This document shows, in pieces, positions 2,646 to 64,000 of a stretch of DNA of 64,000 nucleotides (position 1 is the first letter of the stretch; every line of letters begins with the position of its first letter). Location: contig DASWHR010000027.1 in the NCBI GenBank assembly GCA_036398095.1, positions 8,174-72,173 on the forward strand, given 5' to 3'. Source of the DNA: Actinomycetota bacterium. Its GTDB lineage: Bacteria; Actinomycetota; AC-67. The notes below the pieces were generated by a model. That model had not been told where the DNA came from. It did no database searches and saw only the letters and a list, made by a program, of their open reading frames with translations. The translations under genes and the position numbers were made by a program.

Positions 2646-3218
2646 ATGCCGGATCCCGCCATCGATGCCGTCCGCGCCGAAGCCGCGCGCGTGGTCGCGC
2701 TTGCTCGCTCGCTGACTCCCACCGACTGGAGCGCGCCGAGCCGCTGCGACGATTGGACCGTCGCCGATGTGATCGCCCATCTCGCGTGCGATTGTCAGCG
2801 GTTCACCGAGTGGCTGGCCGATGCCGAGCGGGGCGTGCTGGTCCCGCCGTTTCCGCCGGAGCAGTTCCGCGCCGACAACGCGATGATGCTCGAGCGCTTC
2901 ACCGGCGTGACCGGCCCGCGGCGCCTCGCCGCCTTCGAATCGGCCTTCGGCCGGTGGATCGAACGCGCCGCCGCGCTTGACCCGGCGACGCCGCAGCGGC
3001 ATCCGCGTGGAACCATCAGCGTCGGCTCGCAGCTGTTGCTTGCCGCCGGCGAGTTCGCGATCCACGGCTGGGACGTCGCCGACGCGCTCGGTCGAGATTG
3101 GGATCCGCCGGCCGCGCTGGTCGACATCGTGGCCGCCTGGACGTCGAACGTCGCGCCCGTCCGGAACGGTGACCCCTGGCATGCGCTGCTGAAGGCGAGC
3201 GGCCGCACGCCGATCTGA
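2646..3218 (+). CDS. DinB_2 / mycothiol-dependent maleylpyruvate-isomerase N-terminal-domain family protein (TIGR03083-like)
   Basis: N-terminal pattern ...DWSAPSRCDDWTVADVIAHLA... with a conserved His and about 190 aa, typical of the actinobacterial MDMPI/DinB_2 family. This is a family-level call only. Confidence 0.6.
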   Translation: MPDPAIDAVRAEAARVVALARSLTPTDWSAPSRCDDWTVADVIAHLACDCQRFTEWLADAERGVLVPPFPPEQFRADNAMMLERFTGVTGPRRLAAFESAFGRWIERAAALDPATPQRHPRGTISVGSQLLLAAGEFAIHGWDVADALGRDWDPPAALVDIVAAWTSNVAPVRNGDPWHALLKASGRTPI

Positions 3219-8225: not shown

Positions 8226-10034
8226 ATGGAGATCGCCGACCGCGAGGTCGAGCGCGTCCGCAAGAAGTTCAACATGAACCGCCGCGACTTCGTTCGCACC
8301 ACCGCGGCCATGGCGATCTGCTTCTGGGCCCGCGACGTCGTCATCGGCGGCGGCGGCGCGCAGGCGCACAACACCACCACCACCGACGCATGCGATCTTG
8401 AATGGGAAGAAGAAGTCGGCCTGTTCACCCTCAACAACCTGCCGGGCGAGTTCGTCTTCGACATCCAGTCCCACCACGTCGAGTCCGACGGCATGTGGCG
8501 CGTCACCAACCCCGGCTTCCACGCGTTCTTCGCCGGGATCTGGTCGCAGGCCGGTCCGATCACCGGTGCGCGCCCGGGCATGCGCAGCGGCGGCAACCTC
8601 GATCCCGGATCGAGCAACTTCGCGGTGCGCGGCGCCGGCGCCGGCGAACTCGACCCGATCGAAAACCTGTCGCGCTTCCACTACATGAAAGAGCTGTTCC
8701 TGGATTCGGCGACGACGATGACGGTGCTCTCGGCCGTGCCGGCCGCGCCCGACATCACCCAGCCGCTGCCGATCGAGCGCGCTGCGCTGACCGTGCAGAT
8801 GGTCAACGAGCTCGCCGGATCGCAGCGCACGGTCATGCACGCGTTCGCGATGCCGAACCGCGGCTCGGCCGGGACCATCGCCTCGTCGCTGGGCCAAGAG
8901 CCCGTCTACATGCAGCGCGAATTCGAGATCATGGAGGAGCGCGCGGTCAAGTACGGTTCGATCATCCGCGGCTGGAAGACCTACCCCGCATGGGGTGACA
9001 TTCCCTACGCGAGCGGCTGGTTCTTCGACGACGAGCTGGTCGGGCAGCGCTTCATCGACCACGTTCGCGCCCTCAGCCAGAAGTACCCGAAGCTGCCGCC
9101 GAACATCGCGACGCACAAGGGCTTCGCGCTTCCCGCGTTCGACCAGCGGGCCGCCTCGCCCCGCGACATCGGCCCCGCCGCTTCCCGCAACCCGGATGTG
9201 AACTTCATCGTCTACCATTCGGGCTTCGACGGCGAGACCGTCGGCCCCTACGGCGGCGACACGGCCGATATCTCCACCGACGGCGCCAAGGGCGACCGCC
9301 GCGTGAGTTCGGCCGACCGTATGGTGGACTCGCTGATCAAGTCGCTTCGCGAGAACAACTGGGACGCGACCCGCTTCGGCACCGTGCCGGGCGTCAAGTG
9401 GGCGAACGTGCCAAACGTCTTCGCCGAGATCGGCTCGACCTGGCGCGACGTCATGGGCCAGATCCGCCGCGGCGAGCCCGTCTCAAGCACACCGGCCGCC
9501 GCGATCCATCTGCTCGGCAAGCTCATCACCTACGTCGGTCCGAAGCGGATCGCGTGGGGAACCGACTCGCTGTGGTTCGGATCGCCGCACTCCGAGATCG
9601 TCGGCTTGAGGCGCGTGGACTACAGCCACGCGCCCGGGCTGTGGGACTTCTACAAGCTCCCGTACGCGATCGACGGTGACGCCGACGACCCGCGGGTGGA
9701 CACGCGCAACTGGGTCAACTACACGCCGTCGTCGTCGAACGCGTCGCTGCCGGGCTGGCCGACGGATTCCAAGGCCCACCCCGAGCGGTCGATCCGCAAC
9801 TGGATCTTCGGCCGCTCCGCCGCCGAGGTGTATCGCGTCGACGCCGACGCGCACATGCTCGACCGGGGCACGCATCCGCTCAAGTGCGACGAGGTGCAGA
9901 AGATCCGCGACGCCTACATCGTGAACCAGTACACGCCGAAGGAGCAGGTGCCGATGGCGTCCAACACGCTGATCGGTGCGCGCACTGCCTCCGAGCTCAA
10001 AACCGAAAGGATGAATCAGCCGTGGGCGCCGTAA
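8226..10034 (+). CDS. Tat-exported amidohydrolase-family metal-dependent hydrolase
   Basis: Twin-arginine motif NRRDFVRTTAAMAICFWA. The C-terminal part (WGTDSLWFGSPHSEI) resembles the amidohydrolase TIM-barrel family. The listed ORF starts at 8070, but codons 8070-8225 are A/T-ending and look non-coding. From the ATG at 8226, GC3 is typical of the other genes. Confidence 0.55.
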   Translation: MEIADREVERVRKKFNMNRRDFVRTTAAMAICFWARDVVIGGGGAQAHNTTTTDACDLEWEEEVGLFTLNNLPGEFVFDIQSHHVESDGMWRVTNPGFHAFFAGIWSQAGPITGARPGMRSGGNLDPGSSNFAVRGAGAGELDPIENLSRFHYMKELFLDSATTMTVLSAVPAAPDITQPLPIERAALTVQMVNELAGSQRTVMHAFAMPNRGSAGTIASSLGQEPVYMQREFEIMEERAVKYGSIIRGWKTYPAWGDIPYASGWFFDDELVGQRFIDHVRALSQKYPKLPPNIATHKGFALPAFDQRAASPRDIGPAASRNPDVNFIVYHSGFDGETVGPYGGDTADISTDGAKGDRRVSSADRMVDSLIKSLRENNWDATRFGTVPGVKWANVPNVFAEIGSTWRDVMGQIRRGEPVSSTPAAAIHLLGKLITYVGPKRIAWGTDSLWFGSPHSEIVGLRRVDYSHAPGLWDFYKLPYAIDGDADDPRVDTRNWVNYTPSSSNASLPGWPTDSKAHPERSIRNWIFGRSAAEVYRVDADAHMLDRGTHPLKCDEVQKIRDAYIVNQYTPKEQVPMASNTLIGARTASELKTERMNQPWAP

Positions 10035-25552: not shown

Positions 25553-25912
25553 TCAGCGGTAGCGGTAGGTGATCCGGCCGCGGTTGAGGTCGTAGGGCGA
25601 CAGCTCCAACTTCACGCGGTCGCCGGGCAGGATCCGGATGTAGTGCTTGCGCATCTTGCCGGAGATATGGCCGAGCACGATATGCCCGTTCTCCAGCTCG
25701 ACGCGGAACATCACGTTGGGCAGCGCCTCGGTGATGACGCCTTCCATCTCGATGGCCTCTTCTTTGGTGTTCTGCGAGCGAGCGAGCTGCTTTTCACGCT
25801 GCTCGGCCCGACTTTGGGCGCGCGCGGCCCGCGAAGCTGCGCCGCCTTTGCGCGCGCCTGGGCTTCGCTGCCCTCCCGGCCGTCCGCCGGGCTTTCTCGG
25901 TCGTCCTGCCAT
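25553..25912 (-). CDS. infA: translation initiation factor IF-1 homolog with ~55-aa basic N-terminal extension
   Basis: C-terminal 65 aa [63 protein letters not shown] are canonical IF-1. [10 protein letters not shown] matches the usual IF-1 N-terminus, but no start codon lies between ATG 25912 and the internal ATG at 25747. The gene is therefore either 119 aa with an R/K/G-rich extension or a truncated 65-aa form. Confidence 0.7.
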
Positions 25913-25924
25913 GGTTGTGTTCGG

Positions 25925-25953
25925 CTCACAAAAAACCGGCCTGCCGGCCGGCG
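25925..25953 (-). terminator. intrinsic terminator (minus strand) downstream of LOX-like gene
   Basis: Minus-strand sequence CCGGCC-ggca-GGCCGG followed by TTTTTTGTG, located about 50 nt after the 26005 stop and 20 nt before the infA ATG. Confidence 0.55.
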
Positions 25954-26004
25954 TCGATCATTCGCAGCCGCTGGCAGTATACCCCCGGCCAGGGGAAACG
26001 CCTT

Positions 26005-27204
26005 TCAGCAGCCGGGCGGCGGCGCGACGCATTCGGCTACGGTCATTCCGGCGATCCGGATGCGCGTGAAGGCCGAGTCGTTGTCTCGTGTGAGCTGGCG
26101 AAGGACGGCCGACGGATCGACCTCGACGACGACCGCGTAGACGCCGTCGTCCAAGTTCGAGATGTCCAGATACTGGCCGGGCAGATCCCAGGTGTAGACG
26201 TCCGCCCATCCGACGTCGATGCCTTGGCGCATCTCGGTCGGGCCGGCCGCGTCGCCGCCCGGCAGGTTGCACTGCGGGAAGTGATGGTTGCGCGGACCGT
26301 TGCCGGGCAGCCCGAACCACAGAAGCCGCGTGTCGATCATGCAGAAGTCGGCTTTGCGGGAGCGCAGAATCTCGGCGCCCGGCGTGCCGTCCGTGTTGAC
26401 CGCATGCAGCCGGTATTCGGCGAAGTTCTGATAGTGGACGTGTCCGTGCGTCGCATGCCACGTGTAGGTGCCGGCATCGGTCGTGGTGCGGGTCCCGTCG
26501 GCGGCGTAGACGTCCTGCCACACCACCGGATCGGTCGCCGCCGAGGCCGCGTCCAAGCGAAGCTCGAACGGTCCGTGTCCGAGGTTGGCGACCGCCGAGT
26601 CGAAGCGCAGGCAGCGAGTGAGCGACGGGTTTTCGGCGAGCTCGTCCGGATAGCACCCGCCGGTGTCTTGATATTCGACCGGCGTGAACGACAGCGCACC
26701 GGCCGCGATCTTGAACTCGGCGGGCGCGAGCGCGACAAGGTCTGGCTTCAGCGGATCGGTTCGCGTCGTGTCCAGCTCGACTTGCGCGATGCCGTCGTAG
26801 TTCGAGTCGATCGCCACCGCGGTGGGGATGACGACGACGTGGTAGAGGCCGTTCGCCGGCTCGCGCATGATCAGCGCTTCGGCCGAGGTGGGAAAGCCGG
26901 TCGCCGACGCGACCGTGGCGCCCGAGGCGTTGAGCACGTACAGGTCGAACACGTTGTATTCGCTGAACCAGCGGATCGCGACTTCGACGCCGCCGTCGTG
27001 GGTGTCCCAATAGCCGGCCGGCAGGTCGATCGTCAGATCGAAGCGGTCGGGCAGCGGCACGTCGCTCGTCGTCCAGGTGCGGCCGGTCCAGGCGAGCGTC
27101 GCCGACGGGTCCGACAGCGTCCCCTGATCGGGCGATGCGGCCGATGCGGGAAGCAGCACTCCGGCCAGCGCCAGCGCCGACAGCAGGATCAACACGCGTC
27201 GCAT
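26005..27204 (-). CDS. secreted lysyl-oxidase-like (LOX catalytic-domain) copper amine oxidase family protein
   Basis: Signal peptide MRRVLILLSALALAGVLLPASA. The motif YTWHATHGHVHYQNFAEY has the W-H-x2-H-x-H-x-H-Y spacing of the LOX copper site (WEWHSCHQHYH). About 399 aa. Confidence 0.6.
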   Translation of the reverse strand: MRRVLILLSALALAGVLLPASAASPDQGTLSDPSATLAWTGRTWTTSDVPLPDRFDLTIDLPAGYWDTHDGGVEVAIRWFSEYNVFDLYVLNASGATVASATGFPTSAEALIMREPANGLYHVVVIPTAVAIDSNYDGIAQVELDTTRTDPLKPDLVALAPAEFKIAAGALSFTPVEYQDTGGCYPDELAENPSLTRCLRFDSAVANLGHGPFELRLDAASAATDPVVWQDVYAADGTRTTTDAGTYTWHATHGHVHYQNFAEYRLHAVNTDGTPGAEILRSRKADFCMIDTRLLWFGLPGNGPRNHHFPQCNLPGGDAAGPTEMRQGIDVGWADVYTWDLPGQYLDISNLDDGVYAVVVEVDPSAVLRQLTRDNDSAFTRIRIAGMTVAECVAPPPGC

Positions 27205-63032: not shown

Positions 63033-63295
63033 AGCGCTCCGCTGTCCACTGGGGACGGCGGGAACTCGACCAAACTCCTACCCGAGATTTGGGTTGGTGT
63101 TTGGTCGCTGTCTGCGCCTTGAAAACCGCATAGCGAGGACACGCGATTCGATCCGGGCCGGAAGAGCTTTCGGGTTCGACCGGACCGGGGGAACGCAAGT
63201 GAGAGCGGGCACCCTTTTGTAACGCCTTGTTAGAGATCAGCACCGACGGCAACCAAGGAGCTTCGGCCCCGAGGAAGCCGGCGGTGAGAAACCTC

Positions 63296-64000
<705 letters not shown>

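Follow-up and report, generated by a model that had tools for sequence, protein, structure and literature searches.

Textbook IF-1 is a minimal translation initiation factor, a single OB domain of about 71 residues. The question raised by one locus of an Actinomycetota bacterium (lineage AC-67; GenBank assembly GCA_036398095.1, contig DASWHR010000027.1, positions 8,174 to 72,173 of the forward strand, a stretch of 64,000 nucleotides called the window throughout) is whether its infA gene, designated infA-ext, encodes a longer IF-1 or an ordinary one whose open reading frame (ORF) has been drawn too far upstream. A preliminary description of this DNA had recognized a canonical IF-1 at the C-terminus of the ORF, behind a basic extension of ~55 amino acids (aa), and had weighed a truncated protein, a divergent paralog, an unusual leaderless arrangement, and an ORF-calling artifact as explanations. 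Comparison with relatives indicates that the extension is translated and evolutionarily conserved. The explanation that we favor, and regard as reasonably probable, is a 119-aa IF-1 translated from the ATG at 25912, with an N-terminal arm under selection and an mRNA that bears a leader. The parts of the gene are as follows (all coordinates are window positions).

25553–25912, minus strand: infA-ext, encoding translation initiation factor IF-1 with an N-terminal extension; a complete ORF of 119 aa, stop included in the coordinates, with family matches

25838–25912, minus strand: tail, codons 1–25, rich in Gly, Pro, Arg, and Lys and predicted to be disordered (AlphaFold2 predicted local distance difference test score [pLDDT] <50 for residues 1–23; alignments; composition)

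25778–25837, minus strand: predicted alpha-helix, codons 26–45, with an arginine stripe and the motif SR-x9-QR-x-KQ-x2-R (AlphaFold2; alignment of 29 extensions)

25553–25765, minus strand: canonical IF-1 OB-fold core, codons 50–119 plus stop, starting KEEAIEMEG (TIGR00008, tblastn, Foldseek)

25745–25747, minus strand: internal ATG, Met56; the Shine-Dalgarno-like AAGAAGAGG in front of it consists of the K-E-E codons

Identity of the Product

On sequence grounds, infA-ext is certain to be a bacterial IF-1. The infA equivalog model TIGR00008 matches aa 50–118 over its full length (model positions 1–69 of 69; 125.2 bits, cutoff 61.15), in agreement with the canonical C-terminus first noticed; the Pfam family eIF-1a (PF01176) matches aa 54–117 (7e-28; 96.5 bits, cutoff 30.2), and E. 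coli IF1 aligns with 25765–25556 at 68.6% identity (tblastn). The core, with a score twice the equivalog cutoff, is not divergent, and all family-conserved IF-1 positions are present in it. AlphaFold2, run with a family alignment, predicts the OB barrel (aa 55–117) confidently (pLDDT >90), and the best Foldseek match of the predicted OB fold is M. tuberculosis IF-1 (3i4o; 76% identity, target TM-score 0.97, root-mean-square deviation 1.1 Å); all of the first 14 matches in the Protein Data Bank are bacterial IF-1, and eIF1A and aIF1A chains come next. The N-terminus of IF-1 had been placed ahead of Met56 and does lie there, with KEEAIE upstream of that residue and the TIGR00008 match beginning at aa 50.

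At 119 aa, 49 of them before the profile match, the protein exceeds the single domain of ~70–75 residues by which IF-1 is otherwise recognized; this is an architectural departure from the textbook factor, not a failure of homology. Canonical IF-1 (3I4O; E. coli IF1, 1AH9, 71 aa) shares a complete OB domain with residues 50–119, whereas infA-ext has 47–49 extra N-terminal residues with conserved motifs; the solved bacterial chains that were found measure 66–87 residues. The gene also differs in sitting outside the adk-map-infA-rpmJ cluster usual in the Actinomycetota loci examined.

Conservation of the N-Terminal Extension

The extension beyond canonical IF-1 amounts to 47–49 aa. The 49 aa that precede the TIGR00008 match include 10 R and 3 K against only 2 E (net charge +11), along with 8 G and 4 P, so the basic character originally ascribed to this region is real; the length of ~55 aa had been counted to Met56 and was too great.

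A search covering 5.8 billion protein clusters, with family counts taken from the best 120 clusters at 90% identity, returned mostly IF-1 proteins of 100–130 aa, not 72 aa, and about 92 of the best 120 clusters have at least 30 residues ahead of the IF-1 core. The extended proteins (100–130 aa) form at least four subfamilies, one of which is the type found in the window. A subfamily of 120–130 aa follows the pattern MARPRRGPAPR...SRQARLEKKQ.QRTKQLARAGD.KE., one of 100–102 aa reads MARRRSGRPPSRR..VD.ETRAKREARAGSTKEAA, and one of ~103 aa begins MPQKKRRGGGGG....

The common plan is a basic MARxRR; a Gly/Pro/Arg/Gln linker of varying length; and [SA]R-x9-Q[RK]-x-K[QK]-x2-R just ahead of the core. 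In two alignments the N-terminal motif of the tail, M-A/P-(G/R/K)-R-P-R, corresponds to the family-wide MARPRR (MARxRR). Across 29 aligned extensions R28, Q38, and R45 are invariant, as are K50, E51, I54, E55, and G58 of the core, and at R39, K41, and Q42 conservation reaches at least 90%. The preliminary description had proposed an alignment of extended homologs from related taxa and had named absence from close relatives as grounds for dismissing the extension; it is present in those relatives, and the alignment yielded the shared motifs and architecture just given.

An extension-only profile searched against 1.84 billion representatives matched IF-1 proteins, except for one chimeric call and one junk repeat, which points to a module specific to IF-1. 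This search is uninformative on family size, since extended IF-1s are concealed behind other IF-1s when sequences are clustered at 50% identity. A metagenome-contig scan with the extension-only alignment keyed on the universal IF-1 N-terminal pattern KE[EDQ][AT]IEx[DE]G and returned at least one locus (L095; L numbers designate loci of other genomes and metagenomes). One 157-aa entry (P0401; compare L082, 10001–11336) opens with the N-terminal ~74 residues of an extended IF-1 and continues into the luciferase-like protein whose gene lies immediately downstream in that subfamily; the fusion is probably an assembly or frameshift artifact.

The substitution pattern bears directly on translation of the extension. 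Over 47 extension codons compared with the closest genome relative (L088), synonymous differences number 12.5 and non-synonymous ones 2.5, giving a ratio of non-synonymous to synonymous change (pN/pS) of 0.08, the same as in the core (binomial P = 4e-6 against neutrality). Ten of ten pairs among five relatives give extension values significantly below neutral (0.08–0.55; core, 0.08–0.20). Values below neutral imply that the extension frame is under selection at the protein level, an argument that disposes of an artifact of ORF calling.

By the sequences found, the extension is common to a clade of Actinomycetota. Carriers include Egibacter rhizosphaerae (complete 4.64-Mb genome; QBI21395.1, 100 aa), a Euzebya sp. 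(WP_370324891.1, assembly GCA_041238305.1, called at 86 aa from a gene that can encode 102 aa), metagenome-assembled genomes (MAGs) of Euzebyales (102 aa) and Egibacteraceae (called at 87 aa), and several MAGs labeled "Actinomycetota bacterium."

Start Codon and Gene Calling

ATG 25912 (codon 1) is the only in-frame ATG, GTG, or TTG upstream of Met56. The frame is closed upstream by TGA 25960, no start codon intervenes between 25960 and 25912, and none lies between ATG 25912 and ATG 25747, as had been reported. A near-cognate start at the canonical IF-1 position was considered and rejected, since AAC, ACC, and AAA, which occupy that position, each differ from AUG by two changes. The same 119-aa product is also called on a contig in the JGI collection.

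If the ORF were an artifact, the product would start at Met56 or Ile54 (64–66 aa) and the DNA upstream would be an untranslated leader. Several gene callers do take Met56 as the start, which gives 64-aa products, and the 90% cluster of the window protein comprises one call of 119 aa, two of 66 aa, and five of 64 aa; ATG 25912 is without a Shine-Dalgarno sequence, and G+C at third codon positions is lower in the extension (25766–25912; 0.65) than in the core (25556–25765; 0.91) or neighboring genes (0.87–0.89). Set against these points are the strong synonymous excess in the extension frame, conserved residues and architecture across subfamilies with different DNA, the location of the KEEAIE motif upstream of Met56, and good Shine-Dalgarno sequences at the long-form starts of relatives (GGAGGAG before GTG in L086; GGGAG before TTG in L087). 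The extended gene of L082 likewise has a Shine-Dalgarno sequence. Met56 is therefore unlikely as the main start and probably does not serve as one, and the artifact, which we hold to be extremely improbable, appears close to refuted. That the product is the 119-aa form and not a truncated IF-1, one of the two possibilities first considered, agrees with conservation of the extension in near and distant relatives and with purifying selection in its frame.

Some observations fit the favored explanation less well. ATG 25912 has no Shine-Dalgarno sequence; constraint on the tail is weaker than on the core in more distant pairs (pN/pS 0.3–0.55); and the Gly/Pro/Arg stretch varies in length, as expected of a loosely specified region. 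A-ending synonyms occur among the first codons of infA-ext (GCA GGA CGA .. AGA AAG .. GGA) and may keep a start region that has no Shine-Dalgarno sequence unstructured.

Lengths called for this gene are 64, 66, 77, 119, or 156 aa. In the two closest genome relatives, L088 (GCA_035541035.1) and L087, PGAP calls the gene at 66 aa in one and 77 aa in the other; DNA upstream of these short calls encodes the same extension, beginning in L087 at a probable TTG after GGGAG. A PGAP product of 66 aa would have to begin at Ile54, on a codon other than ATG. The closest metagenomic relative (L096) has a protein 91% identical to that of the window. The JGI call of 156 aa in L086 is probably over-long; the GTG after GGAGGAG gives a 119-aa protein starting (M)ARAHRQ. 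In short calls (64–88 aa) the extension is missing, and so is the conserved KEEAIE N-terminus. These conflicts make start annotation in the extended family unreliable, mostly towards truncation; in practical terms, pipelines often annotate extended IF-1 genes at a truncated 64–88 aa, and at least one is over-extended to 156 aa.

Predicted Structure and Possible Role of the Extension

The AlphaFold2 model made with the family alignment has residues 1–25 disordered (pLDDT <50), a helix at 26–45 (pLDDT ~55–75), a short linker, and the OB domain. Arginines at positions 28, 31, 35, 39, and 45, spaced by 3–4 residues, run along one face of the helix, an arrangement from which we infer a putative arginine-rich RNA-binding helix. 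Arginine-rich RNA-binding extensions are familiar from the tails of ribosomal proteins and from arginine-rich-motif helices. infA-ext resembles these in its R/K/G/P composition, its net charge of +11, and its arginine spacing of 3–4, but has no sequence relation to them, the extension profile matching only IF-1 proteins.

A second likeness is to eIF1A. IF1 consists of a single OB domain, and the OB domain of eIF1A binds the A site as IF1 does; the N-terminal tail of eIF1A (~25 aa, conserved, and positively charged) threads to the P site and mRNA channel, stabilizes binding, and favors the closed complex (PMC2731904; see also PMC5756025 for the tail's stabilization of the factor and the closed complex). 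In eIF1A and aIF1A, as in infA-ext, a homologous OB domain follows a flexible, conserved, positively charged tail rich in Lys, Arg, and Gly; the tail of infA-ext is about twice as long as that of eIF1A and contains a predicted helix.

Identity as eIF1A or aIF1A was considered and rejected, with TIGR00523 at 30.3 bits (cutoff 102.9) and the aIF-1A models at 16–24 bits (cutoffs 91–202). infA-ext has neither the C-terminal helical subdomain nor the acidic C-terminal tail, ending two residues after its last strand (E111–117). Homology of the tails was likewise rejected; between the family profile and human eIF1A, hhalign aligns only the OB core (positions 60–118), a result that counts against too close an equation of the two arms. 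Low eIF1A scores, the missing C-terminal subdomain, and the OB-only alignment make the resemblance one of analogy, and as far as the sequences allow, the likeness of the tails is probably convergent.

The role that we propose starts from the OB domain. By family membership, the C-terminal 70 residues would occupy the 30S A site, lying between h44, the 530 loop, and uS12. The N-terminal 49 residues are a lineage-specific, selected appendage, in which a predicted flexible segment rich in Gly, Pro, and Arg precedes the arginine-striped helix that connects to the OB domain. This appendage would most likely act as an extra RNA-binding arm that adds to or alters the contacts made by the factor, within the 30S initiation complex, with 16S rRNA, mRNA, or initiator tRNA. 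Such a role on the 30S subunit is plausible by analogy; in function, the arm would parallel the basic N-terminal tail that, in eIF1A, extends from the homologous OB domain in the direction of the P site.

A conserved, selected basic arm of 30–60 residues shows that bacteria have elaborated IF-1 in the same direction as the eukaryotic eIF1A tail, and its occurrence in many metagenomic lineages and in cultured genera offers a tractable natural system for the tail's part in 30S binding and start-codon selection. The significance would rise if this were the sole IF-1 in carrier genomes and if the tail altered start selection. A fuller scheme can be drawn, in which the only IF-1 of a sizeable Actinomycetota clade (cultured Egibacter and Euzebya included) gained an eIF1A-like arm that reaches the mRNA, P-site, and initiator-tRNA region, changing start-site selection (for example, on mRNAs that are leaderless or have no Shine-Dalgarno sequence), and in which the factor feeds back on itself by melting the terminator hairpin in its leader. 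Taken as a whole this scheme is unlikely; were it true, it would be a bacterial, convergent counterpart of the eIF1A tail mechanism. No description of an N-terminally extended bacterial IF-1 was found in the limited set of full texts searched, and the extended IF-1 is a real and conserved variant of a universal translation factor that has apparently not been described.

Probable Leader, Hairpin, and Candidate Promoter

Two elements precede the gene.

25929–25952, minus strand: intrinsic-terminator-like element, with a 7-bp stem (6 GC) and GGCA loop at 25952–25935 and T6 at 25934–25929; kept in relatives

25976–25981, minus strand: TATACT, candidate −10 element for infA, between the lysyl-oxidase stop and the hairpin; TAT.CT is invariant in the alignment

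A terminator ~20 nucleotides (nt) before ATG 25912 had been noted in the preliminary description, and the hairpin (GCCGGCC-GGCA-GGCCGGT) with its T6 was found again, the gap from T-run to ATG being 16 nt. By sequence, the element has the GC-rich stem-loop and following U-tract expected of an intrinsic terminator. The number of such elements found is not above chance (two overlapping sites against 1.1 ± 1.1 in shuffles); the element is credible because it is conserved in relatives, not by count. In an intergenic alignment of the window, L088, L096, and L087, L088 has the identical hairpin, L096 keeps the stem but has AACAA as its loop, and L087 has at this position an unrelated perfect 10-bp stem (GGAACCGGCC/GGCCGGTTCC). 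Retention of a hairpin at the same position with a different sequence argues for function. The U-rich tracts in the alignment are TTTTTTG, TTTTTTG, TTTCTTTG, and TTCCTTGTTGG, and 17–30 nt separate the hairpin and U-tract from the start codon.

TAT(A/T)CT is invariant in the same four loci (TATTCT in L087), ~23 nt before the hairpin. Loci of subfamilies A and B have TANNNT at −52 to −76, then a small hairpin; the −52 to −76 interval was picked after seeing the data, so this support is only suggestive. Transcription would start near 25969, from a promoter with TATACT (25981–25976) as its −10 element, and the hairpin and U-tract would lie inside a leader of ~57 nt, also ending the lysyl-oxidase transcript.

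Leaderless mRNAs are common in Actinomycetota, and an alternative has the hairpin and T6 ending the upstream gene, with the infA promoter in the 16-nt gap or overlapping the terminator, so that the mRNA is leaderless or nearly so. The short distance from T-run to ATG and the missing Shine-Dalgarno sequence speak for it. For a leaderless gene we took a TANNNT ending ~6–8 nt before the start codon, with the transcription start site at the start codon itself; the sole TANNNT within 160 nt upstream of ATG 25912 is at −69, and −12 to −7 reads CCGAAC. The conserved TAT(A/T)CT lies upstream of the hairpin in all four loci, and relatives have Shine-Dalgarno sequences and 17–30-nt spacers after the hairpin. 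We accordingly judge the unusual leaderless arrangement envisaged at first to be very unlikely, and the mRNA of infA-ext probably has a ~57-nt leader as far as the sequence indicates.

The proposed leader-bearing transcript has its own difficulties. A full −35/−10 sigma-70 consensus scan found no promoter, and a promoter ahead of a strong terminator is awkward. A simple reading takes the hairpin as the upstream gene's terminator; within a leader, it might serve infA as a 5′ stabilizer (a stem-loop) or an attenuator. The order of candidate −10, ~23 nt, GC hairpin, U-tract, and start codon, conserved in the four loci, is like that of attenuators; unlike them, the leader yielded no antiterminator structure, ligand-binding element, or Rfam match, and a search of the window with Rfam found no known RNA family in it. 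E. coli IF1 has documented RNA-chaperone and transcription-antitermination activity (Phadtare et al. 2007, as cited in PMC3017892), and by analogy self-regulation of infA-ext is conceivable.

Very stable GC hairpins of another kind, with no U-tract, stand 120–140 nt before extended infA in the 123–129-aa subfamily, upstream of the candidate −10 (energies over 40 nt: L082, ~9863–9897, −43.5 kcal/mol; L095, ~3169–3208, −37.3 kcal/mol).

Genomic Context and Copy Number

Neither L36, S13, nor a second IF-1 is encoded within the 64-kb window, and neither these nor Map were found near the extended genes within the flanks examined (up to 10 kb per side); the separation of the gene from rpmJ and rpsM noted at the outset thus extends to every extended locus. 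The neighbors in the window instead encode a lysyl oxidase, a GDPD protein, and an S15 peptidase. The two immediate ones are these.

26005–27204, minus strand: gene for a secreted lysyl-oxidase-like protein, upstream and co-directional, with its stop 92 nt ahead of the infA start codon; synteny shared with L087 and L088

25196–25552, plus strand: convergent ORF of 118 aa with no Pfam match, its stop abutting that of infA; counterparts in L087 and L088

The window, L087, and L088 share one gene order: GDPD, lysyl oxidase, infA, small convergent ORF, and S15 peptidase. Each subfamily has its own neighbors. The window type has a lysyl oxidase and the 127–129-aa type a luciferase-like oxidoreductase; the Euzebya/Egibacter type is accompanied by CobS and a histidine phosphatase, and the ~103-aa type by a CAP-domain protein. 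Most Actinomycetota loci examined have adk-map-infA-rpmJ-rpsM. Among all loci examined, infA has no ribosomal-protein neighbors in Gammaproteobacteria, most Spirochaetes, Desulfovibrionales-like genomes, and one Thermoleophilaceae locus; a position outside the cluster is ordinary in bacteria at large.

We think it rather likely that infA-ext is the cell's working and sole IF-1, relocated from the ribosomal-protein cluster, and not an accessory copy. The competing idea, possible though less probable, is that a canonical infA lies elsewhere in the genome and that the extended copy is a specialized second IF-1 or S1-like OB protein, such as an RNA chaperone, an antiterminator, or a stress- or condition-specific initiation factor, whose arginine-rich tail adds RNA affinity; the activities of E. 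coli IF1 cited above (PMC3017892) would suit such a role. Evidence against a sole copy comes from Nitriliruptorales-like genomes (L009, L089, and L090), which keep a canonical infA of 72–79 aa in adk-map-infA-rpmJ-rpsM, and the extended core is only 77–79% identical to canonical Nitriliruptorales IF-1, a distance that would fit an old duplication. Euzebyales and Egibacterales are related to Nitriliruptorales, yet their cores differ (the canonical Nitriliruptorales-like signature is ..EPLPN..LAHISGKMRMHY..RVVVEL..), and the extended gene is never in the ribosomal-protein cluster, with surroundings that change from subfamily to subfamily.

Against a second copy stands the core itself, a full equivalog with pN/pS of 0.08–0.2 and no sign of relaxed constraint. 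No genome or contig with both types was found among the matches listed, and the named taxa split by type: the extended form in Egibacter rhizosphaerae, Euzebya, Euzebyales, and Egibacteraceae, and the canonical form, among the best 120 matches, in Nitriliruptorales, Coriobacteriia, and Anaerosomatales. Among the best 120 canonical matches, none could be attributed to Egibacter or Euzebya, and none lies on the chromosome-sized Egibacter contig (4,637,169 bp). Both the split and the Egibacter result are weak evidence, with about a quarter of matches named and only the best 120 considered. The signature of the extended core also occurs in canonical-length IF-1 genes of other lineages, inside or outside the ribosomal-protein cluster, and a similar one (EALPN/LGYISGKMRMNY) is found inside the cluster of a Rubrobacter MAG. 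A search with S13 for the Euzebya/Egibacter ribosomal-protein cluster returned, in its best 120 matches, only Nitriliruptorales-like sequences, with canonical infA in their clusters. A whole-protein scan of genome contigs gave, among the matches listed, only canonical-length IF-1 genes from many phyla and none of the extended type.

Other Features

The small convergent ORF and its counterparts in the two closest relatives (L088, 6379–6726, minus strand; L087, 7287–7619, minus strand) are 110–118 aa long, keep the same position, and abut or overlap the infA stop; each end of the product has a hydrophobic segment, the C-terminal one being followed by RVRRRF. At the end of the window (63295–64000, plus strand), Rfam RF00177 (650 bits) marks a bacterial 16S rRNA gene, of which only the 5′ 701 nt lie inside the window. 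In the Nitriliruptorales MAG at L009 (5262–5932), two small ORFs, one of 84 aa and one of at most 231 aa, separate map from infA in the ribosomal-protein cluster; judged by eye, the pair resembles an antitoxin and a PIN-type toxin.

The infA genes in the ribosomal-protein clusters of Acidimicrobiia and Microthrix (14 loci) have neither ATG nor GTG at the start, which lies ~7–8 codons before the core. The codon there is CTG in 11 of the 14 (L010, L012, L017, L028, L029, L031, L038, L058, L065, L068, and L072), ATC in L048, and TTG in L063 and L069, and a GGAGG or AGGAG Shine-Dalgarno sequence stands 5–8 nt before the CTG. From these sequences CTG looks like a conserved infA start codon in Acidimicrobiia and Microthrix, reminiscent of infC with its AUU start.

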